Origin: Candidatus Saccharimonadota bacterium
GTDB taxonomy: Archaea > Nanohalarchaeota > Nanosalinia > Nanosalinales > Nanosalinaceae
NCBI RefSeq assembly: GCF_047555085.1
Contig: NZ_CP180230.1
Span: forward strand, 750,001-782,000
DNA: 32,000 nucleotides
Direction of reading: 5' to 3'
In this document: positions 15 to 32,000 of the stretch, piece by piece
How the letters are laid out: each line of letters begins with the position of its first letter
Position numbering within the stretch: position 1 is the stretch's first letter
Program-made: the position numbers and the translations under genes
The notes under the pieces: model-generated
What the model was told of the DNA's origin: nothing
The model's database searches: none
What the model saw: the letters and a program-made list of their open reading frames with translations, nothing else

Positions 15-719
15 ATGCCGAATCCGAAAAATGTTTCTGAGGATGAGATCCGTGAAATCTATCAGGGCCTGAAAGATCGTTACGGAGAGGCCCCTGAGCC
101 GAGCAGCATGTCCGGTGTTGATTATCTTGTTGAAACTATTCTTTCTCAGAACACGAACGATATCAATCGTGACAAGGCCTTCAAGCAGCTGAAAGAAAAA
201 TACGATTCCTGGGAGAAAGTCGAAAAAGGAGATTACGAGGAGCTTGTCGATACTATCAGAGTAGCGGGATTAGGCCCGACAAAGGCGGAGAGAATACAGG
301 AGGCCTTGCGGATCACCAGGGAGCGTGAAGATGAGTACAGCATCGAGTTCCTGAACGATATGAGTGTTGAAGAAGGGAAGAAATGGCTGACAGACATCCC
401 TGGCATAGGCCCCAAGACAGCTGCTGTGATACTTTGCTTCCATTTCAAGAAGCCTGTGATCCCCGTCGATACACATGTCCACAGGATCTCGAAAAGATTC
501 GAACTAGTGCCGGAGAAGGCCTCGAGGACGAAAAGTCACGACATTTTAGAAGAAATCGTGCCGGATGAAATCAAGTATGGATTCCATAGATTACTTATCA
601 CGCATGGAAGAGAGACATGTAAATCTAAAGGCCACGTCGACAATGAAAACTGCTTCGAGAGATGTAAGTACTACAGAGAAGTTGTCATAGGCGGAAAAGA
701 TCCGAAAGAATTCGTTTAA
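15..719 (+). CDS. HhH-GPD base-excision DNA glycosylase, endonuclease III-like
   Basis: 234-aa ORF with ATG start. It has the LSQNTND motif, a helix-hairpin-helix (IPGIGPKTAAVIL) with Lys, and the downstream VDTHVHRI Asp motif typical of the Nth/HhH-GPD family. The C-terminal Cys pattern is non-canonical (3 Cys only). Confidence 0.85.
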   Translation: MPNPKNVSEDEIREIYQGLKDRYGEAPEPSSMSGVDYLVETILSQNTNDINRDKAFKQLKEKYDSWEKVEKGDYEELVDTIRVAGLGPTKAERIQEALRITREREDEYSIEFLNDMSVEEGKKWLTDIPGIGPKTAAVILCFHFKKPVIPVDTHVHRISKRFELVPEKASRTKSHDILEEIVPDEIKYGFHRLLITHGRETCKSKGHVDNENCFERCKYYREVVIGGKDPKEFV

Positions 720-731
720 ATTCTGGAAAAA

Positions 732-775
732 TTTTTTTGAGAAAATATATGTGAAAGGCCTGTCTTGCAACAGGC
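732..775. terminator. T7 run (732-738) plus hairpin GCCTGT/ACAGGC (758-763 / 770-775) between convergent genes
   Basis: An oligo-T tract lies 13 nt after the stop of the glycosylase gene. A 6-bp stem with a 6-nt loop lies in the 94-bp convergent spacer. Archaeal termination is commonly oligo-T driven. Confidence 0.35.
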
Positions 776-813
776 GTGAATTTGTATAGGAACTCAGGAA
801 ACGACTGGAGGAA

Positions 814-1038
814 TTATTCCTCGTGATCGTGGTCGTGTCCTGGCTGTTCCATTCCTTCCTGCTGTTCCTGCATCTCCTCGACGATCTGCTGTGCGCGTTC
901 GTTGATATCTTCCTGTGAAACGACGTCTTCTTCGTCTAGGATGTTAAGCAGGGCCTGAACTGTAAGTTCAAGGTTACCTAGCTTCTGCTGGAATAGCTGC
1001 ATGATCTGCTGTTCGTTCATTTCTGGTTGTTCTGGCAT
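814..1038 (-). CDS. Hypothetical small acidic, Gln/Glu-rich protein with a His-rich C-terminus (GHDHDHEE)
   Basis: 74-aa ORF with ATG start in an otherwise gene-free slot. Its composition matches the neighbouring genes. I recognise no family. Confidence 0.5.
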   Translation of the reverse strand: MPEQPEMNEQQIMQLFQQKLGNLELTVQALLNILDEEDVVSQEDINERAQQIVEEMQEQQEGMEQPGHDHDHEE

Positions 1039-1157
1039 AATTAATTGACACCTCTTAAAGTGAATAAAACAAGAGTTCTCTTGAACTCTTTTAAATGCGC
1101 ATACCTGTCACGAGGAAAAAGAAGGCCTCGAAAGAAAAATAAAGCACAGAAGGCCTT

Positions 1158-1568
1158 TTAAGCCGAGTTAAGAGGGTTTCTGGCTCCGCAGGCCTGGCAC
1201 TTCAGAAGCTGGACGCCTTTTTCCTTAACGATCTCTGTATCAGGGCTGTCACACTCCGGGCAGAAAACAAAGTCTTCAGCGAAGTTCTGTAGCCTTCCCT
1301 GAATATTTCCTCTTCTGAGCTCTCCATTAAGTACAAGCTCTCCCTCCTTCAGTCTTCCTGCAGTACCCAGTTCATTCTGCAGATACTTGGAAAGCCTGTC
1401 CTTCTCCCTGTTAAGCTTATCCGCTATCTCGGAAAAGTTTACAACTATAGTTTTAGATCCATCCTTCCTGGTATCTACTTCAGGCATCTCGAAACGTTCA
1501 CCGGATCCTGATTCTTCCGGTACTTCTTCCAGGCCTTTTTCCAGGAGATCTTCATAATCGTCAGTCAT
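1158..1568 (-). CDS. eif2b: Translation initiation factor aIF2 beta subunit
   Basis: 136 aa. Central YLQNELGT...G motif and a C-terminal CPECDSPDT...CQACGA zinc ribbon characteristic of aIF2-beta/eIF2-beta. Confidence 0.93.
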   Translation of the reverse strand: MTDDYEDLLEKGLEEVPEESGSGERFEMPEVDTRKDGSKTIVVNFSEIADKLNREKDRLSKYLQNELGTAGRLKEGELVLNGELRRGNIQGRLQNFAEDFVFCPECDSPDTEIVKEKGVQLLKCQACGARNPLNSA

Positions 1569-1609
1569 AAAAGAAAGTTAGAACGTGAATTTCTTAATTC
1601 AAGCGGTAT

Positions 1610-2311
1610 CTACTCTTTTTCAGAAACGGGAAATTCTCCGAACTCAAAATTTTCGTCGGCTTGATACTTCAACTCTATCAGTAACTGAGCTTGTCTCGAC
1701 ATCTCATCAGCATTTTCCGGATACCGCTCCTCTAAATCTAGGGCCTCTGTGACAGATCCACGGACGAATCCTGCGAAATCTCTTTCTCTCAATCTATCTG
1801 CCTGCTCCATCCTCTCCGCTTCAACGGCGTCAAAGGCCCTCTCCATATCCCTCCATGTATCCAGGCCTTCAACGATATCATAAGGAGTGGAACTTCTCCT
1901 TCCCTCTACTTCCTCCAGGCCCAGTATCCTGGGAACATTTGTCTCTGGTATTCCATCGGCGTGCCACTTCCTGTCCGAGTATCTGTCAGAACTATCCGTG
2001 AACATGTCCTGACTCCAATCATACAGTTCACGGGCCTCAGGATCGTACAGGAATAGACTGTCGCCGCTGTTACCCTTATCAGTTACAGTTCTCTGGGATA
2101 TCTGGAATAGATAGTCGCCGTCAGGAGTCTCTGCACCACGGACAACCTGGAGAGTATCCCCTCCGAACATCCAGCCCTCAGACGCCAGGTACTCGACATC
2201 GTCCCCAGCAAGATATTCAAAGGCCTCATCGATCCGAGATTCTTCGCCTAACTCAAAGGCCTCCTCCACATTCTTATCTTCGGCATAATTTACAACGTCT
2301 CTCGAACCCAT
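1610..2311 (-). CDS. Hypothetical acidic protein (no recognisable domain)
   Basis: 233-aa ORF with ATG start. It fills the gap between flanking genes and has the D/E-rich composition of the rest of the proteome. Confidence 0.6.
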   Translation of the reverse strand: MGSRDVVNYAEDKNVEEAFELGEESRIDEAFEYLAGDDVEYLASEGWMFGGDTLQVVRGAETPDGDYLFQISQRTVTDKGNSGDSLFLYDPEARELYDWSQDMFTDSSDRYSDRKWHADGIPETNVPRILGLEEVEGRRSSTPYDIVEGLDTWRDMERAFDAVEAERMEQADRLRERDFAGFVRGSVTEALDLEERYPENADEMSRQAQLLIELKYQADENFEFGEFPVSEKE

Positions 2312-2402
2312 AAACTACATTTTTACTTTAAAGTAACAATTCTTATGTTTCTCCGGTATTGAGAGACAAATAGATATCTTAACCAGACACGCCTTCGTAA
2401 AA

Positions 2403-2534
2403 ATGATTGCTAAGTCGCCGCCATCGATAGCAATGGTAGTAGGCGGAGGACTGATATTCTCCGGCAAACCAGAAGGATGGCTCGCATTTTTTGTTGGAGC
2501 CGGACTTAACGGACTTTGGATTCTGAGTAGGTGA
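2403..2534 (+). CDS. Possible 43-aa small membrane protein (MIAKSPPSIAMVVGGGLIFSGKPEGWLAFFVGAGLNGLWILSR)
   Basis: Hand translation, below the ORF-track size cut-off. It has two hydrophobic Gly-rich segments. Its stop codon is embedded in a hairpin followed by T5. Confidence 0.3.
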   Translation: MIAKSPPSIAMVVGGGLIFSGKPEGWLAFFVGAGLNGLWILSR

Positions 2535-2550
2535 AAAACCTACTCTTTTT
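2525..2550. terminator. Hairpin GAGTAGGT-gaaaa-ACCTACTC followed by TTTTT, between convergent genes
   Basis: Perfect 8-bp stem (2525-2532 / 2538-2545), 5-nt loop and T5 at 2546-2550. It sits directly between the small + ORF and the stop (2553) of the - strand OB-fold gene. Confidence 0.5.
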
Positions 2551-2552
2551 CT

Positions 2553-3302
2553 TTAAAGTTTCTTGATCTTTCCTGGCTTTGGCTCGTAGCAGGTTCCGTC
2601 GCTGAGTAGCGAGTTGATTGTGTCTTCAAGCTGGTCTTCGTCGGCATCTTCAACTGTTTCCAGAATTTCGCTGTAGTCTGCTCCTTCGCCGTCGTCAAGC
2701 TCTTCTACTGCTTCAAGGACGTCTCTTTCAAGATTCTCAACTGTTTCCTCTGTCTGGACGGTGTCGAACTGTTCTCCGAAGCTCTGCATGACGGAGTCTA
2801 CTTCCTCTTCCGTAAGCTTTCCGGCCATCTCTTTCTCTATCTCATCCTGATCTTTTCCGGATTCCTTGAGCTGTTTGATTGTATCGTAGATCTGCTTCCA
2901 TTCTTCAAGCTGTTTCTTGTGCCTTAGCTTGTGAAGAAGCTCTTTCTCTACATCCTGATTCTCCAGAATCTCACCGTTCAAGTAGATTTCTCCCTGATAC
3001 TCCCGGACTTTTCCTACTACTTCAATTATATCTCCGGATTCGAACTCTCTCATGTCGTCAAGTTCGTTGAAGAACTTGATCTGGATAGTATCTTCTCCGT
3101 CGTCTACAGTGATCGAGGCGTATGTCTCGTCCTCGTTGATGAACGTGTCCACAACAGTTCCAACAAGGCGTCCACGGGAAAGCCTGCGGCCTTCCGGCGT
3201 CAAAAGATAGTTAGGCTCAAATCCTTCCTGCTGAAAATACTTACCTGAATTAAGTTCCCGAGTCGTAGTAATCTTTGCGACCTGTCTACTCTGCTGTGGC
3301 AT
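2553..3302 (-). CDS. RPA32/Stn1-like OB-fold ssDNA-binding protein with C-terminal winged-helix-like tail
   Basis: 249 aa. The OB-fold signature region is RLVGTVVD...ITVDDGEDTIQIKFF...GDIIEVVGKVREYQGEIYLNGE. An acidic linker follows. The C-terminal DGTCYEPKPGKIKKL resembles the MCM C-terminus in this window. Confidence 0.7.
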   Translation of the reverse strand: MPQQSRQVAKITTTRELNSGKYFQQEGFEPNYLLTPEGRRLSRGRLVGTVVDTFINEDETYASITVDDGEDTIQIKFFNELDDMREFESGDIIEVVGKVREYQGEIYLNGEILENQDVEKELLHKLRHKKQLEEWKQIYDTIKQLKESGKDQDEIEKEMAGKLTEEEVDSVMQSFGEQFDTVQTEETVENLERDVLEAVEELDDGEGADYSEILETVEDADEDQLEDTINSLLSDGTCYEPKPGKIKKL

Positions 3303-3419
3303 GTAAATTCAAGATATTCTTACTCTTAAGAAACTTTACCGCCTCGAAGTAAAAAACTCGTGAAAGGCCTCTTAAATCAGCCACACAGAAAATCCGAAAT
3401 CACAGATAAAGGCCTCTAA

Positions 3420-3851
3420 TCAAGGCGGAGGAAGCCTCATACAGCGATATTCTATCGTCTCAGTCGATGTCAGGATATTTATCCGTGTCTCACTTGTCAT
3501 ACTGATTGAAGGAGTCAGAGTTGCTGTGAAAGTTCCCTGCGGATCAACTACATCCTGACTGACACTGTAGTTCTGTCCTAGTTCAAGGCCTTCGCCATCC
3601 ACCTGGAAAGGAATATTAGTAGAATTTATCGTCTGTGAGGCATCGTTCCGTATACTGAGTTTGAGATTGTCCGGTTGGCCCCAGCAGCTTTCGATCCTCA
3701 AACTTTCAGAGTTAAGATTTATCTCCGGCTCGAACTGCTGTGCCTGATCTTGAGTGCTTGAGAAAACTTCGTATATAGTCGCTGATCCTGCTACAGTTAC
3801 AGCGATCAAGAGAACTACTGCGATCACAGGCGTTATTCCTTTCCTTTTCAC
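3420..3851 (-). CDS. Archaeal type IV pilin-like protein (class III signal peptide, DUF1628-type N-terminus)
   Basis: GTG start. The N-terminus MKRKGITPVIAVVLLIAVTVAGSA matches the prepilin-peptidase KG/ITPVI cleavage context plus hydrophobic helix. Confidence 0.8.
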   Translation of the reverse strand: MKRKGITPVIAVVLLIAVTVAGSATIYEVFSSTQDQAQQFEPEINLNSESLRIESCWGQPDNLKLSIRNDASQTINSTNIPFQVDGEGLELGQNYSVSQDVVDPQGTFTATLTPSISMTSETRINILTSTETIEYRCMRLPPP

Positions 3852-3910
3852 ATTTTTAGAAGAGGCCTGCGCGTTAAAGTAGGTTTGGCATAGAAAGTTT
3901 CCAGAATTTT

Positions 3911-5902
3911 CTAGATCTTCTGGATGAATCCCTGCTTCGGCTCGTACAGCTCGCCATCACGCTTCAGGCGTTCGATAACTTCCTCGGCCTGATCTCTTTC
4001 AAAGTCTTCTTCCTCAGCTCTGTCAAGAACTTCCTCTATCTCCACTTCTCCATCTTCAGCCATCTCATTGATGATATGCTTGACACTCTGCAATCTATTT
4101 CTTTCAGAGCTTGAGACACCTGACTCGATTATATCGGCGTCGAACTCTCCTGTCTCCGGATCAACACCTACCTGTTCAAGCGAGTACTTCAGAATCCTGA
4201 TAGCTCTCTCCGCATCCTTCTCAGTAACTTTATCACTCAACTCTGTCCTTGCAGAGGCCTCTGCAATTCTTACCAAGGCCTCAAGCTGTCGAGCGGTAAT
4301 CGGAACACTGTTCCCCTCTTCATCGTATCCACGGGAACGCATACTGATGTAGAAATCCTGAATCTTGTCCGCAGCCTCCTGCGTCAACTGAGGCCTCATC
4401 CTCTGAGCGTACGCAATATACTTACGCAGCTGTTTCTGAGATATCTCTGCCTCTGTCTCCTCAGGATCAAGATGATTCTGCAGCACCTGACTGGAAAGCT
4501 TTGTATCTTTCTCCTTGTCCGGCTGATCCTTTACAGGGAAGATGAAATCAAATCTGGAAAGCAGTGTATCCCCGATGTTGATCTGCTGTGGGATCGGCTC
4601 ATAAGGATCAAATCTTCCAAGCTTTGGATTTCCAGCAGCGAGAATAGAAGTCTCAGCATTCAGAGTTGCCTGGATGTTCGCCTTGGAAACAGAGATCTGC
4701 TGCTGCTCCATGGCCTCGTGCAGCGAGGAACGATCCTCAGCTGCCATCTTGTCGATCTCGTCGATCGCCGCCATTCCCTTGTGGGCGAGGACAACTGCTC
4801 CGGCCTCAAGAGAGAATTCTCCTGTAGATTCCTCTTTCACTACAGAAGCTGTCAATCCTGCGCCTGTAGAGGACTTTCCAACAACGTATCTTCCCTTTGG
4901 CGCCAGTTCCCCCGTAAATTTGAGTAACTGGGATTTTCCTGTTCCTGGCTCTCCAATAAGTAGTATATGTAAATCTCCACGGCTTTTGACGCCGTCATCT
5001 CTAGTTTTCTTTACTCCCCCGAACAGCTGTAGCGCAATGGCCTCCTTTATCTCATCGTGGCCGTATATAGAAGGAGCTATAGAGCTTGAAATCTTCTTGA
5101 AGATCTCCGGATCTTTAGCCATCTCCTCAATCTCTTCCTCTTCTTTATCACTTAACTCAAGCTGCTCGAACTCCTGCTGCGTTGGCTCAACACTGTTGGC
5201 CTCCATATAGATATCAAACTTCTTTGAATCCTTCTTCAGAGGCTTCTCACGGAGAACTCCTGTTATGTGGACAACGTTTCCAGGTACGATCTTCTTCTGG
5301 AAATCCGGATCAACAAGATCTCCTTCAAGTCGAACTGATAGGGCGGACGGCTGCTCGGAACCTTCTCTTGACTCCGGATTCTCCTCGATCTGTACCATCT
5401 GCGTATCTGTCATTATCTTGTTGTGGACCTCGAACTTTCTGGATCCACAGGCCTCACACTTGTACGGAGATTTCAGCTTTGTCGAGTCCTGCTCCTTCTC
5501 CACAATCTCCCCGCAGTTAGTACACTGGAACTCTGCCGAAATAACTTCCGGCTTTACCTGAGAGGCCCTCTTGATCATACCTTCGATAGGTATGAAGTTG
5601 CCGATGTGCTTGGAACGAAGATTTCTCAGGAATACGAAGTCCTCCTCCGGCATGTTCTCAAATCTTACACGGATCTCTTCATCCGTAACAAGATCAACAC
5701 CCAGAAGCCCTTCCTCAGCTGCACTTATCGCACTTTCAGGACTCTCCCGTAGAAACTCACTTAACTCAAAGTTGAAGGCATCCATCTCCTGGAAATCAAC
5801 CACTATCGAATCTTCTCCATCCCTGACAACTTCATTAACAGTATCGTAGTATTTATTGGAGAAAAATTCCTCGAATTCGCTGACCGCCTCCCCGTATTCC
5901 AT
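3911..5902 (-). CDS. mcm: MCM replicative helicase
   Basis: 663 aa. Zn motif CTNCG...CEACG, Walker A GEPGTGKSQLL, Walker B AAIDEIDKM and arginine finger SRFD. No intein. Confidence 0.97.
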   Translation of the reverse strand: MEYGEAVSEFEEFFSNKYYDTVNEVVRDGEDSIVVDFQEMDAFNFELSEFLRESPESAISAAEEGLLGVDLVTDEEIRVRFENMPEEDFVFLRNLRSKHIGNFIPIEGMIKRASQVKPEVISAEFQCTNCGEIVEKEQDSTKLKSPYKCEACGSRKFEVHNKIMTDTQMVQIEENPESREGSEQPSALSVRLEGDLVDPDFQKKIVPGNVVHITGVLREKPLKKDSKKFDIYMEANSVEPTQQEFEQLELSDKEEEEIEEMAKDPEIFKKISSSIAPSIYGHDEIKEAIALQLFGGVKKTRDDGVKSRGDLHILLIGEPGTGKSQLLKFTGELAPKGRYVVGKSSTGAGLTASVVKEESTGEFSLEAGAVVLAHKGMAAIDEIDKMAAEDRSSLHEAMEQQQISVSKANIQATLNAETSILAAGNPKLGRFDPYEPIPQQINIGDTLLSRFDFIFPVKDQPDKEKDTKLSSQVLQNHLDPEETEAEISQKQLRKYIAYAQRMRPQLTQEAADKIQDFYISMRSRGYDEEGNSVPITARQLEALVRIAEASARTELSDKVTEKDAERAIRILKYSLEQVGVDPETGEFDADIIESGVSSSERNRLQSVKHIINEMAEDGEVEIEEVLDRAEEEDFERDQAEEVIERLKRDGELYEPKQGFIQKI

Positions 5903-5996: not shown

Positions 5997-6015
5997 AAGG
6001 CCTCTGAAAGGCCTT
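5997..6015 (-). terminator. Hairpin AAGGCCT-ctgaa-AGGCCTT overlapping the TBP stop codon
   Basis: 7-bp stem built from two AGGCCT copies (5998, 6009). The TBP stop TAA is at 6014-6016 on the - strand. Confidence 0.35.
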
Positions 6016-8672: not shown

Positions 8673-9152
8673 ATGCATCCAGCAGCAAAGATTCTAGTCG
8701 GCGCACTTATGATTGTAGTAGGAGCCTTTCTATCTATAGGACCTCTTTCGGAACAGGTGGCAACACTTGTACTGGGAGGAGTAGGGCCTCTACTTGTTCT
8801 CATAGGAGCGTTCATTGTATGGCTTGAAAGTGATGAATGGAAGATGGAGAGACAGAACAAGGAAAGTAAGCAGAAAACTTCAGGCCTGCAGGAACAGTTG
8901 AAAACAGCTCAGTCGATCAGAGACAGAGAAAAGAAAGAAAGAGAAGATCAGAAGCGACAGGAACAGCAGAGACAGCAAAAGAACAGGAAAATCCAGAGAG
9001 ACTACACCGACGTACTTGAAGAAACAGTAGAAGAAGCGAAGGAAACAGTCTCAAACATGGAAGATCCGAACTACAACGCACTGATCGCAGCAGAGAGACG
9101 GGATAAGAACAGGAAAACTCTCATCCAGTGGCTTGAAAGACAGAGCGAATAA
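8673..9152 (+). CDS. Hypothetical membrane protein: two N-terminal TM helices plus a K/E/Q/R-rich coiled-coil tail
   Basis: 159 aa with ATG start. Hydrophobic segments ILVGALMIVVGAFLSIG and GVGPLLVLIGAFIVWL are followed by a charged low-complexity region. A terminator-like hairpin lies downstream. Confidence 0.6.
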   Translation: MHPAAKILVGALMIVVGAFLSIGPLSEQVATLVLGGVGPLLVLIGAFIVWLESDEWKMERQNKESKQKTSGLQEQLKTAQSIRDREKKEREDQKRQEQQRQQKNRKIQRDYTDVLEETVEEAKETVSNMEDPNYNALIAAERRDKNRKTLIQWLERQSE

Positions 9153-9163: not shown

Positions 9164-9193
9164 GAGGCCTGTACGAGGCCTCCAAATATTTTT
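9164..9193 (+). terminator. Hairpin GAGGCCT-gtacg-AGGCCTC followed by a T5 run
   Basis: 7-bp stem (9164-9170 / 9176-9182) made of two AGGCCT copies, starting 12 nt after the stop at 9152. T5 lies at 9189-9193. Confidence 0.5.
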
Positions 9194-9250: not shown

Positions 9251-10627
9251 ATGGACTGGCGTAAAACAGGTATTTTGCTTGTAGCCTTACTTTTTGCCAG
9301 TTCAGTTTCTGGAAGTGTTTCCTGGAATAAAGCCTCTGACTGGGACTCAGGTTCTTCTTCAGGACTGGTTCACGAAAGTTTTGGAGACAACAGTGCTGAG
9401 AGTGTGAAGCTCGGATGGTCTCATTACGGGAGCCAGAACAGTTTGACAGGTTACTGGCCTATGGACGAGGATAGTGGCTCCACTGCTGTGGATGTGAGTG
9501 GTTCAGGAAACGATGGAAGTATCGGCAGCGTTGATCTTGGGAAAGACGGTGTTTTCGGAACAAGTTCTTTCGAGTTCAAAGGCGACGATATTGTTGTAAG
9601 CAGTCCTAATGAGCTTCCTACAGGAGATTCAGCGTTTTCTACTGTTTTCTGGTTCAAAAATATCAACGCCAATGATAACGGCGGTATACTGCACTGGGGT
9701 GCGAACAGTGGAAGCAGTGCCAGCGGGCAAGAGGTCCGTGATGATGGATGGCAGCACTATTTTTACGGCAACGACAACAACTGCTACAACCTCGGTATGT
9801 GGGACGGCAACTGGCATATGGCCGTCGTAACGTATGATACCAGTACAAATATGAGGAAAATGTACCTTGATGGAAATCTGGAATGTAGCGATGACGCAGG
9901 AAACGTGAACATCGATAGCAGCACCGACATACAGATCGGGGGAGGAGATTCTAGTGCCGCATTGAACGGAGCAAGACTGGATGAAGTCAGGATATGGCAC
10001 AGATCAGTAAGCCAGGAGGAGATAAACCAGCTTTACAGCTCTGCATTCAACGGAGAGCTCAACACTTCCTGGAAAAACTTCGACAGAGAGACACGCCCGG
10101 ATAAACTGGAGCTAAAAACCAACAGCACCCTGAACGGACAGACGATAAACGTAGTAATAGACTCCGACACTGATGAAAACGGAGTTACAGATGAATCAAG
10201 TGAACAGATAACACTCAACGGTAGTGGAGGACCCTACCCTGTAAAAGGCCTCTCAGCAGACTCAAAAAGTTATAGAGCCCGGATAACATTCGACTCCAGC
10301 ACCGCATCAAGTTCACCGGAGTTAACCGGTCTGAAGCTTGAGAGTAAAGGCCTCGAGATATGTGATCACAGAGGTCCAGGTAATGAATGTGTCTCGAACA
10401 GCAGCCACGACGTTAACGGGAAAACTTTCCATCTAAACTCTATCTTCATAGCTGAACCATCAGCAATCCTCACCGCCCTATCCGAGAACTCTACGATACA
10501 TGTAAACAACGAATCCCGTATCTCAGGCCTGTGGAAAGGCGGATTCTTCATAGATTCTCCAGGGCCTAGAATTGTTTCCGGGGCTGCTTTCAGGCCTCAT
10601 GGCAAAAGAATTGTCATCGGGAACTAG
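9251..10627 (+). CDS. Secreted LamG (concanavalin A-like lectin/glucanase, Laminin_G_3-type) domain protein
   Basis: Signal-peptide-like N-terminus MDWRKTGILLVALLFASSVSG. LamG hallmarks: LTGYWPMDEDSGSTAVDVSGSGNDG..., FWFK..., WHMAVVTYD...MYLDG..., ARLDEVRIWHRSVSQEEINQLY. I prefer ATG 9251 to the track's TTG 9245 because a TTTATCAAAA box is centred about 26 nt upstream. Confidence 0.85.
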   Translation: MDWRKTGILLVALLFASSVSGSVSWNKASDWDSGSSSGLVHESFGDNSAESVKLGWSHYGSQNSLTGYWPMDEDSGSTAVDVSGSGNDGSIGSVDLGKDGVFGTSSFEFKGDDIVVSSPNELPTGDSAFSTVFWFKNINANDNGGILHWGANSGSSASGQEVRDDGWQHYFYGNDNNCYNLGMWDGNWHMAVVTYDTSTNMRKMYLDGNLECSDDAGNVNIDSSTDIQIGGGDSSAALNGARLDEVRIWHRSVSQEEINQLYSSAFNGELNTSWKNFDRETRPDKLELKTNSTLNGQTINVVIDSDTDENGVTDESSEQITLNGSGGPYPVKGLSADSKSYRARITFDSSTASSSPELTGLKLESKGLEICDHRGPGNECVSNSSHDVNGKTFHLNSIFIAEPSAILTALSENSTIHVNNESRISGLWKGGFFIDSPGPRIVSGAAFRPHGKRIVIGN

Positions 10628-12297
10628 CTTTGATCTTCGTACAGGTTCTTTACCTTCTGCAGGGAGTCTGCCTGTTCTTTGTCTTCTCTGAACTGTTTCA
10701 TCCTCGGGAACCGGAGTGCGTATCCTGAAGAATAATTAGGACTTTCCTGGATCTCCTCGTATTCGGCTTCTACGATGACTTCAGGCCTGACTTCTACTTT
10801 TCTGCCGTCTTCCTTCGTTATCAGCGGCTTCAGTTTCTCTGTGATCTCCTGGAACTGTTCGTCGGTAAGGCCTGTCGCCATTTTTCCGACTTCTAGGTAT
10901 TCATCGTTTTCTTCATCGTAGCATCCGAGGTACAGCCGGCCAAGCCAGTCGCTTCTTCTTCCTTCGCTCCATTTTGCTCCGATGATCGCAAGATCTAGAG
11001 TCTCCATCACCGGCTTCAACTTGACCATGTAGCCGACTCTGTTACCGGGCTTGTACTCTGCTTCAAGAGATTTCATCATTATTCCTTCGTGTCCGGCGGA
11101 AAGAGAGGCCTGCTGCATCTCCCCGACTTTCTCCTCCTCACTGGTTTCTGCGTGATCAACGAGTTTCATCACTTTCTCCTCCTCGCTGACTATCTCCTGA
11201 AGTTCCCTCCATCTCTCACTGTAAGGCCTTTCAAGGATCGGCTCATCTAAATATATCAGATCGAAAGGCCTGACTGTGACAGGTATCTGGGCCTTCAGTT
11301 TCTGTATCTCGTATTTTCTCTTGATCCTCTTGGAAAGCTTCTGGAAAGGAATCATGGATCCATCCTCGGGATCGTAGCCGACTATCTCAGTATCAATTAT
11401 ACAGTTCTCAGACTCTATGTTTTCCTCAACAGCCTCTACAACATCAGGGAACTGCTCTGTAACATCTTCAAGCCTTCTGGTAAAGACTGTGACTCCCCCA
11501 TCTTTTACATGGATCTGGGCTCGCATACCATCGTACTTGTAATCTATAGCCGCTGGCTTACCGACTTCTTCAAAACCTTCCTCAATAGTCTCAACTTTCT
11601 TCGCCAGCATCGACTTGATAGGCCTCTCCAGTTCAAGCTCCAGCGATCTTACTTTTTCTATTCCTTCTCTACAGGCCTCTGCAACTTCTGCAAAATCATT
11701 CGTGAAATCATAGGCCTTCTGAATCTCTTCACTATGTTCTCCATCGAAAAAGGCCTCTGCCAGAGCATCTCGGATTGTTCCCTCTCCGATTCCCAGCCTC
11801 AAATTATTGATTATTATACGTGCGAGATAACGGGCCTCTTTCGGCTCCGCTGAAGATATCAGATCAGCCAGTTCTCGCTGTTTTTTATCCTGGTCAACGC
11901 TCTGGCTCAGTCCCGAGGCCTGTGTATCCGCTACTTTCTGAAGCCTGTCGACAACTTTCTCCACGGTTATTTCCTGTGTCATCAGTCTTTGCTGTGTCTT
12001 TTTCTCCACCATGGCCTCTGCTGCCAGGCCTAGATCGCCTTCGTTTTTCCATGTCTCTGTTATCTCGTCTTCTGATCTTCCTGTGGCCTTTGAAATTATT
12101 TTGACAAGTGTTTTTGAGGATACACCGAGGTCCATGTTTTTCCAGGCAGGGAAAGGTGTGCCTGTAGAAAGCAATACCAGGTTTGCAAGTTCGTCATCAG
12201 CGTCTCTGAAAAGCTCTGCAAGTATATCTGTTTTCTCCAGATTCTTCTGTGTAGCTTCCAGATCTTCAAAGGCCTCTGCAACTCGGGAGTATCTCAC
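10624..12297 (-). CDS. lig: ATP-dependent DNA ligase
   Basis: Adenylation motif I KYDGMRAQIH plus full-length similarity to archaeal Lig1-type ligases. The track ORF starts at TTG 12372. I prefer GTG 12297 (MRYSRVAEAFEDLEAT...), which matches typical ligase N-termini and removes the overlap with the divergent gene. The start is uncertain. Confidence 0.93.
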   Translation of the reverse strand: MRYSRVAEAFEDLEATQKNLEKTDILAELFRDADDELANLVLLSTGTPFPAWKNMDLGVSSKTLVKIISKATGRSEDEITETWKNEGDLGLAAEAMVEKKTQQRLMTQEITVEKVVDRLQKVADTQASGLSQSVDQDKKQRELADLISSAEPKEARYLARIIINNLRLGIGEGTIRDALAEAFFDGEHSEEIQKAYDFTNDFAEVAEACREGIEKVRSLELELERPIKSMLAKKVETIEEGFEEVGKPAAIDYKYDGMRAQIHVKDGGVTVFTRRLEDVTEQFPDVVEAVEENIESENCIIDTEIVGYDPEDGSMIPFQKLSKRIKRKYEIQKLKAQIPVTVRPFDLIYLDEPILERPYSERWRELQEIVSEEEKVMKLVDHAETSEEEKVGEMQQASLSAGHEGIMMKSLEAEYKPGNRVGYMVKLKPVMETLDLAIIGAKWSEGRRSDWLGRLYLGCYDEENDEYLEVGKMATGLTDEQFQEITEKLKPLITKEDGRKVEVRPEVIVEAEYEEIQESPNYSSGYALRFPRMKQFREDKEQADSLQKVKNLYEDQS

Positions 12298-12317
12298 ACG
12301 GTTTTTTTGCACCTGAA

Positions 12318-12327
12318 GGTTTAAACC
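12318..12327. promoter_or_regulatory. Palindromic TATA-like box GGTTTAAACC, possibly shared by the divergent lig and nitroreductase genes
   Basis: Centred about 25 nt from the lig GTG (12297) and about 28 nt from the nitroreductase ATG (12351), which is leaderless-type geometry on both sides. The same 10-mer recurs at 16933-16942. Confidence 0.4.
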
Positions 12328-12350
12328 TGTACGAGACGAATAGTTTCGTG

Positions 12351-12995
12351 ATGTCGGTTCTCGAACAGACAAGAAAAATAACCTCTTTCAGAAAGCCGAA
12401 AGACGAGACAGTATCACGGAAAGTGATCGGCAGGATACTGGAAGCAGGTCGACAGGCCCCGTCACCAGGCGGAGTACAGTCACTTGAATTCGTAGTAGTC
12501 GAATCAGAAGAAGTCAAGGAGCAGATAGAGATGGTGGTAGGCGACGAAAGAGTAGTAGAGGCCCCGACATCGATAATCATTATCGGCGACAGACAGAGAA
12601 TGGCCCGCAGAGTAGGCGCAGAAAATGCAGAAAAGGCCTCACAGGCAGAAGTATCATGCGCCGTACAGAACATGCGACTGGTAGCACAGGAAAACGGTGT
12701 ATCAAGCTGCTGGTTCTCCGGCTTCGAGGGAGAGGTACTCGCAGACAAGATAAGTGCCCCTCAGAACAAGGTACCTACAGCTGTAGTCTCACTGGCGTAT
12801 ACCGACAATCCTGTTCCTATGAAGGAGAAGTTCGGTATGAACGAGATCTGTTTCTACGACGAATACGGCAGCCAGGTCAGCACGCTTTTCGATGGGCCTG
12901 AATGGGAAGGAATAGAGGAGGAGAAAAGAATCTTCAGAAAGAAGCAAAAAGGCCTCGTTGACAAGTTGAAACGGCGACTTCGAAAGGTTTTATAA
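12351..12995 (+). CDS. Nitroreductase family protein
   Basis: About 214 aa. N-terminal R..TSFRK motif, ILEAGRQAPSPGG, and the SCAVQNMRLVAQENG...S pattern typical of the NADH/flavin nitroreductase fold. Confidence 0.85.
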   Translation: MSVLEQTRKITSFRKPKDETVSRKVIGRILEAGRQAPSPGGVQSLEFVVVESEEVKEQIEMVVGDERVVEAPTSIIIIGDRQRMARRVGAENAEKASQAEVSCAVQNMRLVAQENGVSSCWFSGFEGEVLADKISAPQNKVPTAVVSLAYTDNPVPMKEKFGMNEICFYDEYGSQVSTLFDGPEWEGIEEEKRIFRKKQKGLVDKLKRRLRKVL

Positions 12996-16634: not shown

Positions 16635-16919
16635 CTAGTTGGAAGAATGCTGGTTCTTCAGTTCCTGCCACTGTTCGGCGAATTCATCCTTCATGTGTTC
16701 AAGAGCTACTTTCTCTTCATCTTCTAGCTCGCGGTTCTCAACAATATTCCTGTAAACCTTGTAAGGGTGAGTTGGAACATCTTCCTGCATGTTCTGTCTA
16801 AAATCATCTTCAAACTTGTGTCGATGTTGATCGACCTTCTCTTTAAGGATGCCATCCTCCTCCCAAGAATCATTGAGCTTCTCCTTAGAGCTCTTACCTA
16901 AATCCCAGAGGCTAGGCAT
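16635..16919 (-). CDS. Hypothetical charged protein (94 aa from MPSLWDLGK...)
   Basis: The track ORF reaches 17018, but its first 33 codons are basic/Cys-rich and unlike the acidic proteome. Met34 has A/T boxes (TTAATAA, GGTTTAAACC) just upstream. I recognise no family. Confidence 0.45.
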   Translation of the reverse strand: MPSLWDLGKSSKEKLNDSWEEDGILKEKVDQHRHKFEDDFRQNMQEDVPTHPYKVYRNIVENRELEDEEKVALEHMKDEFAEQWQELKNQHSSN

Positions 16920-17183
16920 AGTCTGAAAGCAGGGTTTAAACCTTATTAACCTTACGCACCGCTGAACACTCCAAATACCCGCAGCCAAGGCCTTGTTACT
17001 CCTTTTAGCTAACAACAATATCTCGTTTTAATGATGTAATCAAAAACATCTCTACATCCTGCAAAACATTATAGAAACAATTTAAAACCGTTAAAAACAT
17101 AGAAGGCCTGAAAGCATGCTTTAAAAATGTGAAAAGGCGTTCAAGGCCTTTCAAAGCCCTGAATCCTTATACAATACGTCTCT

Positions 17184-19183: not shown

Positions 19184-19207
19184 AGAGGCCTCAAGGCGGA
19201 GGCCTCT
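19184..19207 (-). terminator. Hairpin AGAGGCCTC-aaggcg-GAGGCCTCT downstream of eif5a
   Basis: Perfect 9-bp stem built from two AGGCCT copies (19186, 19200), about 15 nt past the eif5a stop. T-runs flank it on the - strand (T5 before, T6 after at complement of 19165-19170). Confidence 0.45.
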
Positions 19208-19605: not shown

Positions 19606-19611
19606 CTTCAA

Positions 19612-22627: not shown

Positions 22628-23062
22628 TTAATCCATCGTTGCTGGTTCTGTAACATTTGTATCCGCTGAAACATCCATAGATTCTTCAACACTATCTGTT
22701 TCCATATATGCTGATAGGCTGAAAACATCGTAAGCTGGCTTCCAGATATCTTTGGCACGATATCTTTGATCTTCAGCGCCATCCACGCCTATCTCAACCA
22801 TTACCTGTCTAGCGAGGACATCATCATTGTGAACAGTGGCTTTCCAGTAGTCCTTTGCATAATCTCTGTCAAGCTGGACTTGCATTGAAACGTCCGCTGT
22901 CTCTGCACCGTTGAGAACTTCTTGCGCAGTAGCATCTACTCCTAGTTCTGAAAAAAGCTCATTAATTTGCTCTCTATCCGCTCCCGTTACCTCATCACTA
23001 CCCGCTTCTATTTCTGGCGGCGTAGATCGATTAGAGGCGTAACCACTATTGCTGTACCTCAT
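22628..23062 (-). CDS. Hypothetical acidic protein
   Basis: About 144 aa from ATG 23062 (the track's TTG is at 23068). A TTTAAAT box lies about 30 nt upstream. I recognise no family. Confidence 0.5.
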   Translation of the reverse strand: MRYSNSGYASNRSTPPEIEAGSDEVTGADREQINELFSELGVDATAQEVLNGAETADVSMQVQLDRDYAKDYWKATVHNDDVLARQVMVEIGVDGAEDQRYRAKDIWKPAYDVFSLSAYMETDSVEESMDVSADTNVTEPATMD

Positions 23063-23172
23063 TTGCAATAAAAAATGCGGCCAGCGGATTTAAAAAATTT
23101 CGCATACAAACGGGAGGCCTTCCAGATACCTCCAGAAACTCGTGAGAACATTGATTTACTCTGGAAGATTTT

Positions 23173-24754: not shown

Positions 24755-24776
24755 TTAAGCCATCAAGCCTGTTGAA

Positions 24777-26579: not shown

Positions 26580-26656
26580 ACTCCAGACTTGGAGTTTACG
26601 AAAAGCAGAAACTCAACAGAGTTTCAAAAATCGATATTTGAGGTGAAAATCACACA

Positions 26657-26875: not shown

Positions 26876-26887
26876 AAAAACCAACTC

Positions 26888-26920
26888 AAGGCCCGTAACA
26901 GGGCCTTTAATTCAATTTTT
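26888..26920 (+). terminator. Hairpin AAGGCCC-gtaaca-GGGCCTT plus a T5 run just after atpK (candidate internal attenuator or RNA-stabilising element)
   Basis: 7-bp stem (26888-26894 / 26901-26907) 13 nt after the atpK stop. T5 lies at 26916-26920. Confidence 0.4.
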
Positions 26921-26949
26921 AACCACAAACCAACGAGGAGAAAAACGAT

Positions 26950-27042
26950 ATGACAACAAGAATCAAGGAAGAAAGCGGAAGGCCTGAAAACAGTACTATG
27001 AACGACTTTAACACGGAAAAAGTTTCTGGAGGTGTCCTGTAG
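26950..27042 (+). CDS. Candidate 30-aa mini-ORF in the atpK-atpE spacer (MTTRIKEESGRPENSTMNDFNTEKVSGGVL)
   Basis: Hand translation. GAGGAG lies 9 nt upstream of the ATG. The stop TAG (27040-27042) ends 1 nt before the atpE ATG (27044). There is no homology evidence. Confidence 0.2.
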   Translation: MTTRIKEESGRPENSTMNDFNTEKVSGGVL

Positions 27043-27043
27043 A

Positions 27044-27577: not shown

Positions 27578-27583
27578 TCAGCT

Positions 27584-28591
27584 ATGAGTCTAGTAGATAA
27601 AATCCCGAAGGACTATCCTTATTTGAACGCACGTATCAGAGCCAAAGGAGCTCAGCTTCTGGACAGGAATGACTACGAGAATCTTCTCAAGATGAAGTCC
27701 AACGGTATCGCCCGGAAACTGGAGGAAGGGCAGTACAGCAGGGAGATAAACGAGCTTGGTTCAATGCTTGATGGGACAGAGCTTGTGGAGACTGCTTTAC
27801 AGAGAAATGCAACTAGAACTCTTGTTGAACTTGTTGATGAAAGCTCCGGAAGCCTTGAAGAGATACTGAAGGTATATGTAAGGCGTTATGATATTGAAAG
27901 CCTGAAGAGGCTTCTGAGAAAGAAGAAACAGGGCGAAGAACTAGGCACAGTAGTAACACCCGGATTTGAGTATCCTATCGAAAGACTCGAAAAAATGCAC
28001 AGAAATGAAAGAGAAGAAATAATAAACTCCATCGAATTCGAAGGAGCGCTCGTGGATTACAGCGAATACATCTCCGCAGAACAATCACTTGAAGAGTTCG
28101 AGAGAGGTATCGATCAGGCCTACTTCGATGAACTGGAGAAGCTAGCAGATAAAACAGGCAATAAAAGACTGGAGAGATTCCTGAGGAAGGAACTTGAGTA
28201 CGAGAACCTGAGGATTGTTATCCGGCTGAAAAGATATGACATAGAAGCTGAAGAAATCAGGAACAGATGTTTCAACTGTGAGGCCTCGAATCTTGTTCAG
28301 GCCTGTATCGATGCAGCGGACTTTGACGAAATGCTTCAGTTGATCAGGGACTCCGACTGGGAAATAGGAATGGCTGAGGAAGTAGAGGAGGTAGAGCACC
28401 AGTTGAAGGTTTCACGCCTCCGCAGCTCCTTGAAGAATCTGAGGACTGCGCCTCTAGGCCTCGCACCGATAATGTCCTTCGTGGTTGCAAAGATGGTTGA
28501 GGTCGACAATCTTCGTATGATGGTTCAGGCCAAGTCCACAGGCGCTCAGGATGCCGATAAAATCAGGGAAAATCTAGTGATTTCAAGATGA
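27584..28591 (+). CDS. atpC: A-type ATP synthase subunit C
   Basis: 335 aa. YPYLNARIRAKGAQLL N-terminus and the repeated helical architecture typical of AtpC / V-type d. Confidence 0.9.
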   Translation: MSLVDKIPKDYPYLNARIRAKGAQLLDRNDYENLLKMKSNGIARKLEEGQYSREINELGSMLDGTELVETALQRNATRTLVELVDESSGSLEEILKVYVRRYDIESLKRLLRKKKQGEELGTVVTPGFEYPIERLEKMHRNEREEIINSIEFEGALVDYSEYISAEQSLEEFERGIDQAYFDELEKLADKTGNKRLERFLRKELEYENLRIVIRLKRYDIEAEEIRNRCFNCEASNLVQACIDAADFDEMLQLIRDSDWEIGMAEEVEEVEHQLKVSRLRSSLKNLRTAPLGLAPIMSFVVAKMVEVDNLRMMVQAKSTGAQDADKIRENLVISR

Positions 28592-28611
28592 AAAAAGAGG
28601 TAAGATAAAAA

Positions 28612-28926
28612 ATGGTAGATTCAGACGACAGGAAAAGTATTGCAGTGATCGGTGACTCCGATTTCACGACAGGTTTCAAGCTTGCAGGCATCAAGAAGAC
28701 TTTCGACACAGAAAACTACAGGGATACAATCGAAGAACTGATTGATCGAGATGACATCGGAATCCTTGTAGCCGAGGAAAGTGACCTGGAGAAGCTGCCT
28801 AAAAGAGCACGAAACACTGTTGAATCAAGTGTCGATCCTGTGGTAGTAGCCTTAAGCGAGACAGCTGAAAGCGAAAGATTGCAGGAGAAAATCAAGAAAG
28901 CTATTGGAGCAGACATCACACAGTGA
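28612..28926 (+). CDS. atpF: A-type ATP synthase subunit F
   Basis: 104 aa. IAVIGDSDFTTGFKLAGIK motif typical of AtpF / V-type F. Confidence 0.9.
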   Translation: MVDSDDRKSIAVIGDSDFTTGFKLAGIKKTFDTENYRDTIEELIDRDDIGILVAEESDLEKLPKRARNTVESSVDPVVVALSETAESERLQEKIKKAIGADITQ

Positions 28927-28964
28927 GACAGTCTAAAACTAATACTAAAGGTGTAAATTAAACA

Positions 28965-29024
28965 ATGAACAACGAGAAAAACAACGAATCGTTTCATACA
29001 GAAACACAGAGGGTGAACAACTGA
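28965..29024 (+). CDS. Candidate 19-aa mini-ORF in the atpF-atpA spacer ([19 protein letters not shown])
   Basis: Hand translation. AAGGTG lies 11 nt upstream of the ATG. The stop TGA (29022-29024) overlaps the atpA ATG (29024-29026) as TGATG. There is no homology evidence. Confidence 0.2.
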
Positions 29025-30751
29025 TGGGAGAGATTTACAAGGTAGCAGGGCCTGTAGTAATCGCTACAGACATGGACGCACAGATGTACGATGTTGTACA
29101 TGTCGGAGAAGAAGGCCTGATGGGAGAAGTAATCCAGATAGAAGGAGAAAAATCATACATACAGGTATACGAGGATACTACAGGAGTAAAGCCTGGAGAA
29201 CCTGTAGAGAACACGGAAGAGCCTCTTTCCGTAGAACTTGGACCAGGCCTGCTGACATCTATCTACGATGGACTTCAGAGGCCTCTTCCTGAGCTTCAGG
29301 AGATGACAGGAGACTTCATCGCCAGAGGAGAAGATGCTCCAGGAATTGATGAAGAAAAAGAATACGATTTCAGGCCTACAGTCGAGGAAGGTGACGAAGT
29401 TGAACAGGGAGATGTCGTCGGTAAAGTCGACGTAGAGTACGGAGATCACAAAGTAATGGTTCCTCCGGATTCAGAAGGCGGAGAAGTCGCCGATGTCAGA
29501 AGCGGAGATCATACAGTAACAGATACTGTAGTCGAGCTTGAAAACGGGGAAGAGATCCAGATGAGACAGGAATGGCCTATCAGAGACGCAAGGCCTGCTC
29601 AGGACGATCTTAGACCTGAAGTCCCTCTAGTTACAGGACAGAGAGTTCTTGACGGACTGTTCCCAATTGCAAAGGGAGGAACAGCCGCTGTTCCCGGAGG
29701 ATTCGGGACAGGAAAGACTGTGACACAGCAGTCTCTCGCGAAGTTCTCCGACGCAGACATCATTGTATACATCGGATGTGGAGAACGTGGAAACGAGATG
29801 ACAGAGGTACTGGAAGAGTTCCCAGAGCTTGAAGATCCACAGACAGGAGATAAAATCATTAATCGAACAGTACTCATTGCGAACACTTCAAACATGCCTG
29901 TAGCAGCAAGAGAGGCCTCCATCTACACCGGAGTGACGATCGCAGAGTACTTCCGCGACATGGGACTGGACGTCGCACTGATGGCCGACTCCACTTCCCG
30001 TTGGGCGGAAGCTATGCGAGAGATCTCCGCAAGACTGGAGGAGATGCCTGGTGAAAGAGGTTATCCTGCTTATCTTGCTTCAAGGCTTGCAGAGTTCTAT
30101 GAGCGTGCTGGAAGAGTTGATCCTCTTGCAGATGAGGATCCGGGTTCCGTCTCGATCATCGGAGCTGTTTCACCTCCGGGAGGAGACTTCTCGGAGCCTG
30201 TTACTCAGAACACCTTGCGTGTTGTGAAGAACTTCTGGGCTCTGGACAAGGATCTGGCCGAGAAGAGGCACTTCCCATCGATTAACTGGGATGATTCTTA
30301 CTCCGGTTATGAGGATATGCTTGCAGACTACTTCAAGGAAGAAGTAGACGACGACTGGAGTGACAACATTCAGAGAATGAAGGATCTGCTTCAGAAGGAC
30401 GGCGAGCTTCAGGAGACAGTTCAGCTTGTCGGAAAGGATGCTCTTCCGGAAAGAGAAAGATTGACACTGGAGATTGGAACATTGATAAAGCAGTTCTACC
30501 TGCAGCAGAATGCATTCCATCCTGTCGATCAGTACTCTTCACCGCAGAAGACTTTCGACATCCTTGAACTGATCCTGGACTGGGGAGACAACGCTTACCA
30601 GGCACTTGAGGACGGTGCAGCTGTACAGGATATCGTTTCACTGGCCTCAAAGAACAGAATCAGTGAGGTCAAAACCGCAGATGACTACGAGGATAAGATA
30701 AACGAACTCCGTGACCAGATGGATGAAGAGTTCTCGGAGCTTGAGAGGTGA
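29024..30751 (+). CDS. atpA: A-type ATP synthase catalytic subunit A
   Basis: 575 aa. P-loop GGFGTGKTV, Walker B region and full-length AtpA-like sequence. No start codon lies in frame upstream after the TAA at 28946. Confidence 0.98.
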
Positions 30752-30761
30752 TTTTTGAACA

Positions 30762-32000
30762 ATGACACAAGAAGAATACCAGACTATTGAACAGGTGAAA
30801 GGACCGCTTGTCTACGTTGAGAAAACCAGAGACGTCGCCTATGGAGACATCGTTGAAATCGAGACTCCGGACGGAGAGGTCAAAAGAGGAGAAGTTCTGG
30901 AGACTTCAAAAGACGTCGTAGTAGTCCAGGTGTACGAGGAGACACAGGGAATCGGACAGGATGCACGAGTCCGTTTCATGGACGAAAACGTCAAGATGCC
31001 TGTTACAGAGGATCTTCTGGGAAGAATCCTTGACGGTACCGGAGATCCAATCGACGATGGGCCTGAAGTAATCCCTGAAGAGGAACGAGACATTCAGGGA
31101 GAGGCCATCAACCCTTACTCAAGAGAGCTTCCGGAAGACTTCATCCAGACAGGAATCTCCACGATTGACGTGGCGAACACTCTTGTCAAGGGACAGAAAC
31201 TTCCGATCTTCTCCGGATCAGGCCTTCCGCACAACCGTCTTGCAAAACAGATCGCAAGACAGGCCGATGTAAAAGGAGAGGATACAGATTTCGCAGTAGT
31301 ATTCGCAGGAATGGGAATCACAGAGGAAGAATCTCAGGACTTCATCGAAGAGTTCGAGGACACAGGAGCACTTGAACGCTCCGTAGTTTTCCTGAACAAG
31401 GCCTCTGATCCTGCACCGGAAAGAATAATCACGCCAAGAATGGCGTTGACGACTGCAGAGTTCCTGGCTTTCGAGAAAGGTATGGATGTCCTTGTCATCA
31501 TGACAGACATGACAAACTACTGTAACGCACTGCGAGAAGTATCTGCAGCTAGAGAGGAAGTTCCAGGGCGAAGAGGATATCCTGGATACATGTATACAGA
31601 TCTTGCAGAGCTTTACGAGCGTGCTGGATTGATTGAAGGCGAGGAAGGATCTGTTACACAGCTTCCTATCCTTACAATGCCTAACGACGATCAGACACAT
31701 CCTATCCCAGACCTTACAGGTTACATTACAGAGGGACAGATCGTTGTCGACAGAGATCTCGATAATCAGGGCCTGAATCCGCCTATAGATATCCTTCCAA
31801 GTCTTTCCCGTCTGGAGGACAACGGTATCGGAGAGGGCTACACTCGCGAAGACCACGGAGATGTTTCAGATCAGCTATACGCTCTCTACGCAGAAGGTGA
31901 GAGCCTGAGAGATCTTGTTTCAATTGTAGGAGAAGATGCGTTGAGTGATAGAGATGAGAAAATCCTTAACTTCACACGTGAGTTCGAGAAAAAGTTTGTC
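30762..32000 (+). CDS. atpB: A-type ATP synthase subunit B (3' end beyond the window)
   Basis: Not in the ORF track because it is open-ended. Hand translation from ATG 30762 gives [21 protein letters not shown]...[15 protein letters not shown]...[15 protein letters not shown]..., typical of AtpB. GAGGTGAT SD lies upstream. Confidence 0.97.

Follow-up and report, generated by a model that had tools for sequence, protein, structure and literature searches.

We report here that the palindromic hexamer AGGCCT is strongly over-represented in a 32,000-nt stretch of contig NZ_CP180230.1 (assembly GCF_047555085.1, positions 750,001 to 782,000; hereafter the window), deposited as Candidatus Saccharimonadota bacterium and assigned by its GTDB lineage to the Nanosalinaceae. 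The excess recurs in part of the Nanohaloarchaea, and we conclude with high confidence that it reflects a DNA-level fixation bias on AGGCCT in the enriched lineages, roughly 18-20-fold and independent of frame and coding status. As to its cause, we see about an even chance that AGGCCT is a highly iterated palindrome (HIP) of a subset of Nanohaloarchaea, linked to an AGGCCT methylase peculiar to the lineages concerned.

The AGGCCT excess in the window

The excess in the window is real and strong. Exact counting gave 121 copies between positions 175 and 31404, one per 264 bp, against a zero-order expectation of 6.6 at a G+C content (GC) of 46.2%, which corresponds to an enrichment of about 18-fold. 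An earlier note, made on this DNA from the letters alone, had estimated about 121 copies against 5-10 expected at a GC in the mid-40s, and these estimates were accurate, as were the positions that it gave. Its counts for the one-off neighbours (about 45, 27 and 7, and about 7 for TAGGCCT) were likewise near the exact values, namely 48 for AGGCCC+GGGCCT, 27 for AGGCCA+TGGCCT, 9 for AGGCCG+CGGCCT and 9 for TAGGCCT; TAGGCCTA occurs 0 times. AGGCCT ranks first among all 4,096 hexamers of the window. The runners-up are its own overlaps (GGCCTC with 67 copies, AAGGCC with 59), and the best three hexamers that do not overlap it reach only 44-49 copies each. Its flanks are near background composition, except for a slight preference for T at -3/-4 and its avoidance at -1, the latter in keeping with TAG and CTAG being scarce in general. 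As the earlier note had also stated, about one third of the copies (42/121) are the core of 8-mer palindromes.

The same note had named a null expectation of about 100 copies or more, from Markov models or from codon-shuffled genes, as the level at which the excess would be explained away. Synonymous codons exchanged within genes (n=500) yielded 16.3±3.4 copies and never more than 27, far below this level, whereas 96 copies are observed in the genes (z=23). Markov expectations of order 1, 2 and 3 (7.7, 26 and 63.5 copies) also fall below the count. Order 4, with 119.7 copies, formally reaches the level and yet is uninformative: since AGGCCT supplies most of its own 5-mers (121 copies among 163 AGGCC and among 222 GGCC), this match is no valid refutation. 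From the order-4 result one does learn that A on the 5' side and T on the 3' side are mutually independent, each being present at 73% of GGCC.

Genes hold 96 of the copies and spacers 23, with 2 more straddling gene ends. All three frames are used, as had been claimed, with 17 copies read as AGG-CCT (Arg-Pro), 43 as xAG-GCC-Txx and 36 as xxA-GGC-CTx. When we considered the positions at which the protein permits the word, 17 of 22 Arg-Pro, 42 of 53 [KEQ]-Ala-[SFLCYW] and 36 of 56 x-Gly-Leu opportunities were found to be used (95/131 in total, 73%). In nearly every gene of the window most permitted positions carry AGGCCT, and the carriers include housekeeping genes such as those for MCM, DNA ligase, TFB, the CCA-adding enzyme and subunits of the A-type ATP synthase. 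The two strands of genes behave symmetrically, AGGCC not followed by T and GGCCT not preceded by A both standing at about 1.7 times their shuffle values.

Density is even along the window (12-19 copies per 4-kb bin) and spacing is Poisson-like, with a coefficient of variation of the gaps of 0.94 versus 0.98 for random placement and gaps modulo 3 of 36/42/42. Neither a quasi-periodic spacing like that of HIP1 nor an excess of close pairs (5 observed, 8.9 expected) was found in the window.

Distribution of the excess among Nanohaloarchaea

We used the MCM helicase of the window as a marker for finding its relatives and for placing it among them. These relatives are Nanohaloarchaea (DPANN), the nearest with 89% protein identity and Nanosalina J07AB43 with 83%. 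Across a comparison set of about 60 loci from Nanohaloarchaea, each 7-22 kb long, AGGCCT density is bimodal, with 2.0-4.8 copies/kb in enriched loci versus 0-0.9/kb in non-enriched ones. The enriched group comprises L001, L005, L011, L013 (SG9, CP012986.1), L020, L022, L023 (M3_22, CP046106.1), L027 and L054, together with the metagenome contigs L201, L208, L214, L216, L218, L223 and L229; SG9 and M3_22 are complete genomes, here represented by loci of the same 7-22 kb. All other loci, including Nanosalina J07AB43, are non-enriched. AGGCCT is the first or second hexamer in every enriched locus checked, and each enriched relative is enriched along its whole locus. The two groups are alike in GC (0.448 in non-enriched versus 0.455 in enriched loci). 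The comparison with related genomes that the earlier note had proposed shows that the enrichment recurs in some nanohaloarchaeal lineages.

In a neighbour-joining tree of MCM, four enriched clades are interleaved with non-enriched lineages, and the two nearest DNA relatives of the window fall on either side of the divide, L201 being enriched (77.5% nucleotide identity) and L004 non-enriched (75.9%). This shows that the trait was gained or lost several times within Nanohaloarchaea.

A few loci (L012/L213, L219, L003, L014 and L006) have intermediate densities of 0.6-0.9/kb, which is 2-4 times their order-1 expectation, and L012 is sister to an enriched clade. Such loci could represent lineages in which the trait is being acquired or lost. 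A separate observation concerns L018 (JBDGSJ010000004.1), a relative without the AGGCCT excess and with a GC of 55%, in which GGWCC occurs in 161 copies spread evenly over 22 kb, 2.1 times the order-1 expectation. In every other locus GGWCC stays at or below 1.02 times this expectation, and in many at 0.14-0.3. This recalls the alternate HIPs of cyanobacteria, and L018 may by analogy carry an alternate iterated palindrome, GGWCC.

Outside Nanohaloarchaea, an approximately 5-fold AGGCCT excess in three Acidilobaceae loci was traced to composition, as it amounts to only about 1.3 times the order-2 expectation; our test is therefore able to detect an excess driven by composition. Viral contigs scanned for three close AGGCCT copies gave chance matches or tandem repeats, and the few cases with dispersed copies were not halophile-like. 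Two of the viral contigs with a dispersed excess, L082 (IMGVR_UViG_3300029432_000018; 13 copies in 3.6 kb, 36% GC) and L163 (22 copies in 10.8 kb), suggest that the trait may exist outside Nanohaloarchaea.

Nature of the bias

To define the word on which the bias acts, we pooled about 296 kb of enriched and about 413 kb of non-enriched nanohaloarchaeal DNA. Per 100 kb, AGGCCT occurs 334 times in the former versus 29 times in the latter. GGCC with one correct flank is found 192 versus 76 times, AGGCCC/GGGCCT therein being up 5-10-fold, while GGCC with neither flank is nearly the same in both (81 versus 75), and GGGCCC is not enriched. Based on this dependence on the flanks, the word per strand is approximately AGGCCY and a plain GGCC (HaeIII-type) target is ruled out. 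The recognised unit is hence shown to be the hexamer and not its GGCC core.

The strength of the bias is the same wherever it can be read. At synonymous opportunities, AGGCCT is favoured in enriched over non-enriched genomes with odds ratios of 20.9, 19.1 and 18.1 for the three frames, and in DNA outside open reading frames (ORFs) the density ratio is 17. Such a single, frame-blind multiplier (about 18-20) points to a fixation bias at the DNA level on the complete word; effects acting on codon pairs, on proteins or on transcripts would not be expected to produce it. The bias fills about 65-75% of the positions where the protein tolerates the word. The higher non-coding density claimed by the earlier note is a weak effect: in the window our own gene model gives 5.2/kb in non-coding DNA (23 copies in 4.4 kb) versus 3.5/kb in genes, and pooled over 17 enriched loci the difference is only 3.55 versus 3.28/kb.

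The pressure also reaches the proteins, since it raises the frequency of peptides able to carry AGGCCT: [KEQ]-Ala-[SFLCYW] is 2.0 times (p=1e-4) and x-Gly-Leu 1.7 times (p=3e-4) commoner in enriched genomes. Moreover, existing sites are kept from decaying. At orthologous positions in enriched relatives, 47% of the window sites are AGGCCT versus 16% for control hexamers, while in non-enriched relatives the figures are 6% versus 14%. Pairs of enriched loci with 82-86% nucleotide identity retain 62-94% of their sites, where 30-40% would be expected. Enriched pairs with 97-99.9% identity have too few single-nucleotide polymorphisms for a spectrum.

What may drive the bias

The agent would be a lineage-specific, sequence-specific DNA enzyme, the likeliest candidate being an orphan N4-cytosine methyltransferase of the StuI type (AGGCCT). 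Methylated sites might then be favoured by a weak genome-wide selection for high site density or, alternatively, by a repair bias linked to methylation, as proposed for HIP1. The link to a methylase, taken by itself and drawn by analogy, seems to us possible, though slightly short of an even chance. In M3_22, a survey lists as the single restriction-modification gene an orphan Type II methylase of the N4-cytosine class, and no Vsr (PMC10609329). The one experimentally detected AGGCCT methylation that we found, in Photorhabdus, is N4-cytosine, with 184 sites in the whole genome (PMC6092372), and a methylase predicted by similarity in REBASE to recognise AGGCCT in fact methylates GGGCCC, also at N4-cytosine (PMC6700114). 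Furthermore, HIP words in cyanobacteria co-occur with cognate orphan methylases (PMC4390886). The earlier note had left four options, and the solitary methyltransferase among them is plausible; our data agree with its DNA-level options and speak against an RNA structural module as a general explanation.

Several points weigh against a HIP-like word maintained by a methylase. No methyltransferase, nuclease or other candidate gene turned up in the window or among enriched loci amounting to roughly 300 kb, nor was any gene confined to enriched lineages found linked to the region of the window. Scans of the window and the archaeal loci for methyltransferase motifs revealed no credible methylase in any nanohaloarchaeal locus; three matches to the methylase patterns were discarded, as they lay in non-nanohaloarchaeal loci and were unlike real methylases. 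A protein search seeded with a beta-class SPPW methylase returned no acidic, halophile-type protein among its best 120 matches. In addition, N4-methylcytosine has no obvious T:G repair drive, so that the step from methylation to gain of sites is without an established mechanism. The spacing of AGGCCT is Poisson-like, while that of HIP1 is reported as quasi-periodic. The published methylome of a cultured nanohaloarchaeon, Ca. Nanohalococcus occultus, which may or may not be of the enriched type, contains only GDGCHC methylation (PMC11001535). Finally, the sharing of sites between clades does not testify to a function of single sites: saturation at about 70%, reached independently, accounts for it without common ancestry of these sites.

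Among the alternatives, we regard as unlikely, though deserving attention, that AGGCCT is the site of an abundant binding protein (nucleoid, segregation or replication) that is present only in enriched lineages and acts through weak selection without methylation. The profile of the word resembles that of a binding site, with an indispensable core, an outer transition tolerated on one side and outer transversions much less favoured, and the maintenance of sites, their even density and the strand-symmetric, frame-independent effect agree with it. A dimer site of 6 bp, however, should tolerate GGGCCC proportionally, and this word is not enriched; no candidate protein was identified, and we found no precedent for a chromatin protein that saturates 70% of synonymous opportunities. 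Rather improbable, in our opinion, is a drive of the very-short-patch type, in which a 5-methylcytosine methylase (GGCC or AGGCCT) and a T:G glycosylase or endonuclease (Vsr or Mig) would turn AGGTCT/AGGCTT into AGGCCT. Such a drive would deplete the T-containing neighbours of the word. This would be consistent with the pooled loci, where GGTC/GACC is the only clearly lower class of the six GGCC neighbour classes (enriched/non-enriched 0.75), and with the window genes, which hold 2 AGGTCT and 2 AGACCT versus 6.8 and 9.6 in synonymous shuffles. Tested genome by genome, though, the lower GGTC count falls short of significance (p=0.11), and GGTC is no lower than the other GGTN words. An apparent excess of AGGTCT/AGGCTT in non-enriched orthologues disappeared under a codon-level control: for Gly/Ala codons in the motif, T stands at 0.39/0.30 in these orthologues versus 0.31/0.30 in the control, and the lack of an excess is due to saturation of synonymous sites at this divergence (about 70-75% nucleotide identity). 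GGCC without its flanks is not enriched. The word bias of Dcm/Vsr in E. coli is small, as opposed to the roughly 18-fold enrichment of AGGCCT. M3_22, for its part, is listed without an m5C methylase and without Vsr (PMC10609329). The window does contain one repair gene, for an HhH-GPD glycosylase (Table 1), which we considered as a Mig-type driver and rejected: the enzyme is of the endonuclease III (EndoIII) type, and its stretch also aligns in non-enriched relatives. DR2438, among its best matches, is a monofunctional glycosylase, and the relationship to the T:G glycosylase Mig.Mth is only distant. As this is the only glycosylase found, the window holds no Vsr/Mig-type T:G enzyme paired with a 5-methylcytosine methylase.

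We consider it very improbable that AGGCCT is a self-recognition tag by which these ectosymbionts know own-kind DNA during import or cell-to-cell transfer, in the manner of uptake sequences in Neisseria and Haemophilus; it would then be the first uptake or transfer signal known in Archaea. The use of all frames, the shift in peptides and the occasional pairs at 3' ends recall uptake sequences, and the word is lineage-specific. Giant proteins of Nanohaloarchaea are linked to systems resembling type IV secretion (PMC10266531), and a 2026 preprint ties HIP1 to type IV secretion. Against a tag stand the little information that six palindromic bases offer for discriminating self from non-self, the format of known uptake sequences (9-12 nt, non-palindromic, about 1 per kb) and the presence of the same tag in four deeply diverged clades. 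A related and equally improbable reading is a new sequence-specific system of biased repair or gene conversion that works without methylation. The last alternative, that the excess is a by-product of base, codon or amino-acid usage or of RNA hairpin modules, is almost certainly wrong, and as a general explanation it was tested and rejected. It can draw on the order-4 Markov expectation, which equals the count, and on three tight pairs of AGGCCT that form stable hairpins after stop codons (Table 1). However, the synonymous shuffle, the absence of an excess in non-enriched sisters of the same GC, the 17-fold enrichment of non-ORF DNA and the lack of an excess of close pairs all contradict it, and the Acidilobaceae loci show that our test does recognise an excess of this origin. 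An RNA-level module, as the earlier note had suggested, is as a general explanation not supported, given the Poisson-like spacing, the lack of a close-pair excess and the restriction of hairpins to three tight pairs. These three are the tightest AGGCCT pairs of the window and their complementarity reaches past the hexamer; we propose that such paired copies may have been co-opted secondarily as 3'-end structures.

Comparison with known systems

The closest resemblance we see is to HIP1 (GCGATCGC) of cyanobacteria. Both words are short GC-rich palindromes, more than 10-fold over-represented, which lie in genes in all frames as well as in spacers, at up to about one per few hundred bp. As for the HIP class in general, the distribution is patchy among relatives, and certain lineages use another word (in the present case L018, with GGWCC). 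In both cases sites are conserved beyond neutral expectation and the function is unexplained. AGGCCT shows four of the six features of the HIP class, namely over-representation, occurrence in all frames and non-coding DNA, lineage specificity and site conservation. On the other hand, it is archaeal (DPANN) and not cyanobacterial, has 6 bp instead of 8, is another word, and is not periodically spaced. HIP words have been associated with orphan methyltransferases (PMC4390886, PMC5861425); should the methylase here be of the StuI type, the modification would be N4-cytosine, as against 5-methylcytosine and N6-methyladenine within HIP1.

With StuI-type restriction-modification AGGCCT shares the recognition word, and GGCC, the N4-cytosine methylation target of M.Ssp6803II, has been described as a frequent methylated motif in Synechocystis (PMC6560206). 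The earlier note was correct that such palindromes are usually avoided, as illustrated by the methylated AGGCCT of Photorhabdus, which is rare at only 184 sites in the genome (PMC6092372) compared with about 3.8 per kb in the window. Restriction sites are usually avoided, while AGGCCT has accumulated, which is the opposite.

The Dcm/Vsr system of E. coli, where CCWGG is raised and CTAG-containing words are lowered, is comparable in that a DNA enzyme system, and not coding needs, biases a word genome-wide, and in that case the word is the methylase site. The present system differs in an effect far larger than that of Dcm/Vsr and in that the window yielded neither Vsr nor Mig. The uptake signal sequences of Pasteurellaceae and the DNA uptake sequences of Neisseriaceae are likewise dispersed, present in all frames, associated with a peptide shift, lineage-specific and occasionally paired at gene ends. 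They are, however, non-palindromic, 9-12 nt long and recognised by a specific receptor, while AGGCCT is palindromic, has 6 nt and is about 4 times denser; when we looked for a non-palindromic motif of 9-12 nt with conserved flanks around AGGCCT, only the hexamer was specified. The lack of conserved flanks also sets AGGCCT apart from repetitive extragenic palindromic (REP) elements and miniature inverted-repeat transposable elements (MITEs), and, unlike such repeats, most copies lie inside conserved housekeeping genes.

Full-text literature searches turned up no paper mentioning an AGGCCT excess in Nanohaloarchaea or elsewhere in Archaea, and this strong, presumably genome-wide feature has apparently not been described before. 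Cyanobacterial HIPs have been known for about 30 years and their function and origin are unsettled. AGGCCT would provide an independent case of an iterated palindrome from a second domain of life, whose carriers have genomes about 1 Mb in size. Since lineages with and without the excess are intermingled and about equally far apart in sequence, simply comparing which genes the available genomes have or lack could reveal the gene responsible, which has so far not been possible for HIP1. A pressure that can remodel both the choice of synonymous codons and the use of peptides proteome-wide has a bearing on codon-usage, phylogenetic and binning analyses of Nanohaloarchaea, and AGGCCT could be used to mark lineages in metagenomes from hypersaline habitats.

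Further features and observations

The coordinates of the features mentioned above are collected in Table 1.

Table 1. Genes and paired AGGCCT copies of the window, with positions counted from its first nucleotide.
Feature	Position	Strand	Description
ATP-dependent DNA ligase gene	10624..12372	-	Identified with Pfam; densest gene, 12 copies (6.9/kb), 12/14 opportunities used
MCM helicase gene	3911..5902	-	4 copies, 4/6 opportunities used
HhH-GPD base-excision glycosylase gene	15-719	+	Best matches Deinococcus EndoIII-1/DR2438; Mig.Mth only E=1.6e-6
Two AGGCCT, 5 nt apart	5998..6014	-	Directly after TBP stop codon; ~7-bp hairpin plus outer pairs; fold -13.3 kcal/mol, z -3.2
Two AGGCCT, 5 nt apart	9165..9181	+	13 nt past stop of 159-aa ORF 8673-9152; 7-bp hairpin; fold -13.4 kcal/mol, z -4.7
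Two AGGCCT, 8 nt apart	19186..19205	-	Just downstream of aIF5A; 9-bp hairpin AGAGGCCUC...GAGGCCUCU; fold -16.8 kcal/mol, z -4.8

Pfam and NCBIfam searches of the window ORFs identified housekeeping genes only, and scans of the window for tRNAs and Rfam families found none. Five ORFs of 127-233 aa (1610-2311, 8673-9152, 16635-17018, 22628-23068 and 31218-31856) have no significant match to either family collection.

Three of the loci retrieved bear bacterial titles and encode an archaeal MCM. L024 (JBLGBK010000006.1) is titled Colwellia polaris, with an MCM 76% identical to that of the window, L048 (JAUYPF010000059.1) is titled simply "bacterium" (44%), and L073 (JAHFNV010000027.1) Candidatus Nomurabacteria (47%). 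Judging from these sequences, all three look like mis-binned archaeal (DPANN) contigs.

Several other palindromes of the window deviate from their order-1 expectation. CTAG (50 versus 128), CGCG (14 versus 51), GCGC (26 versus 56), TCTAGA (3 versus 18) and GGWCC (17 versus 44) are much rarer, a depletion that for CTAG, GGWCC and CGCG resembles restriction-site avoidance, while TCCGGA is 3.4 times more frequent (28 versus 8.2).

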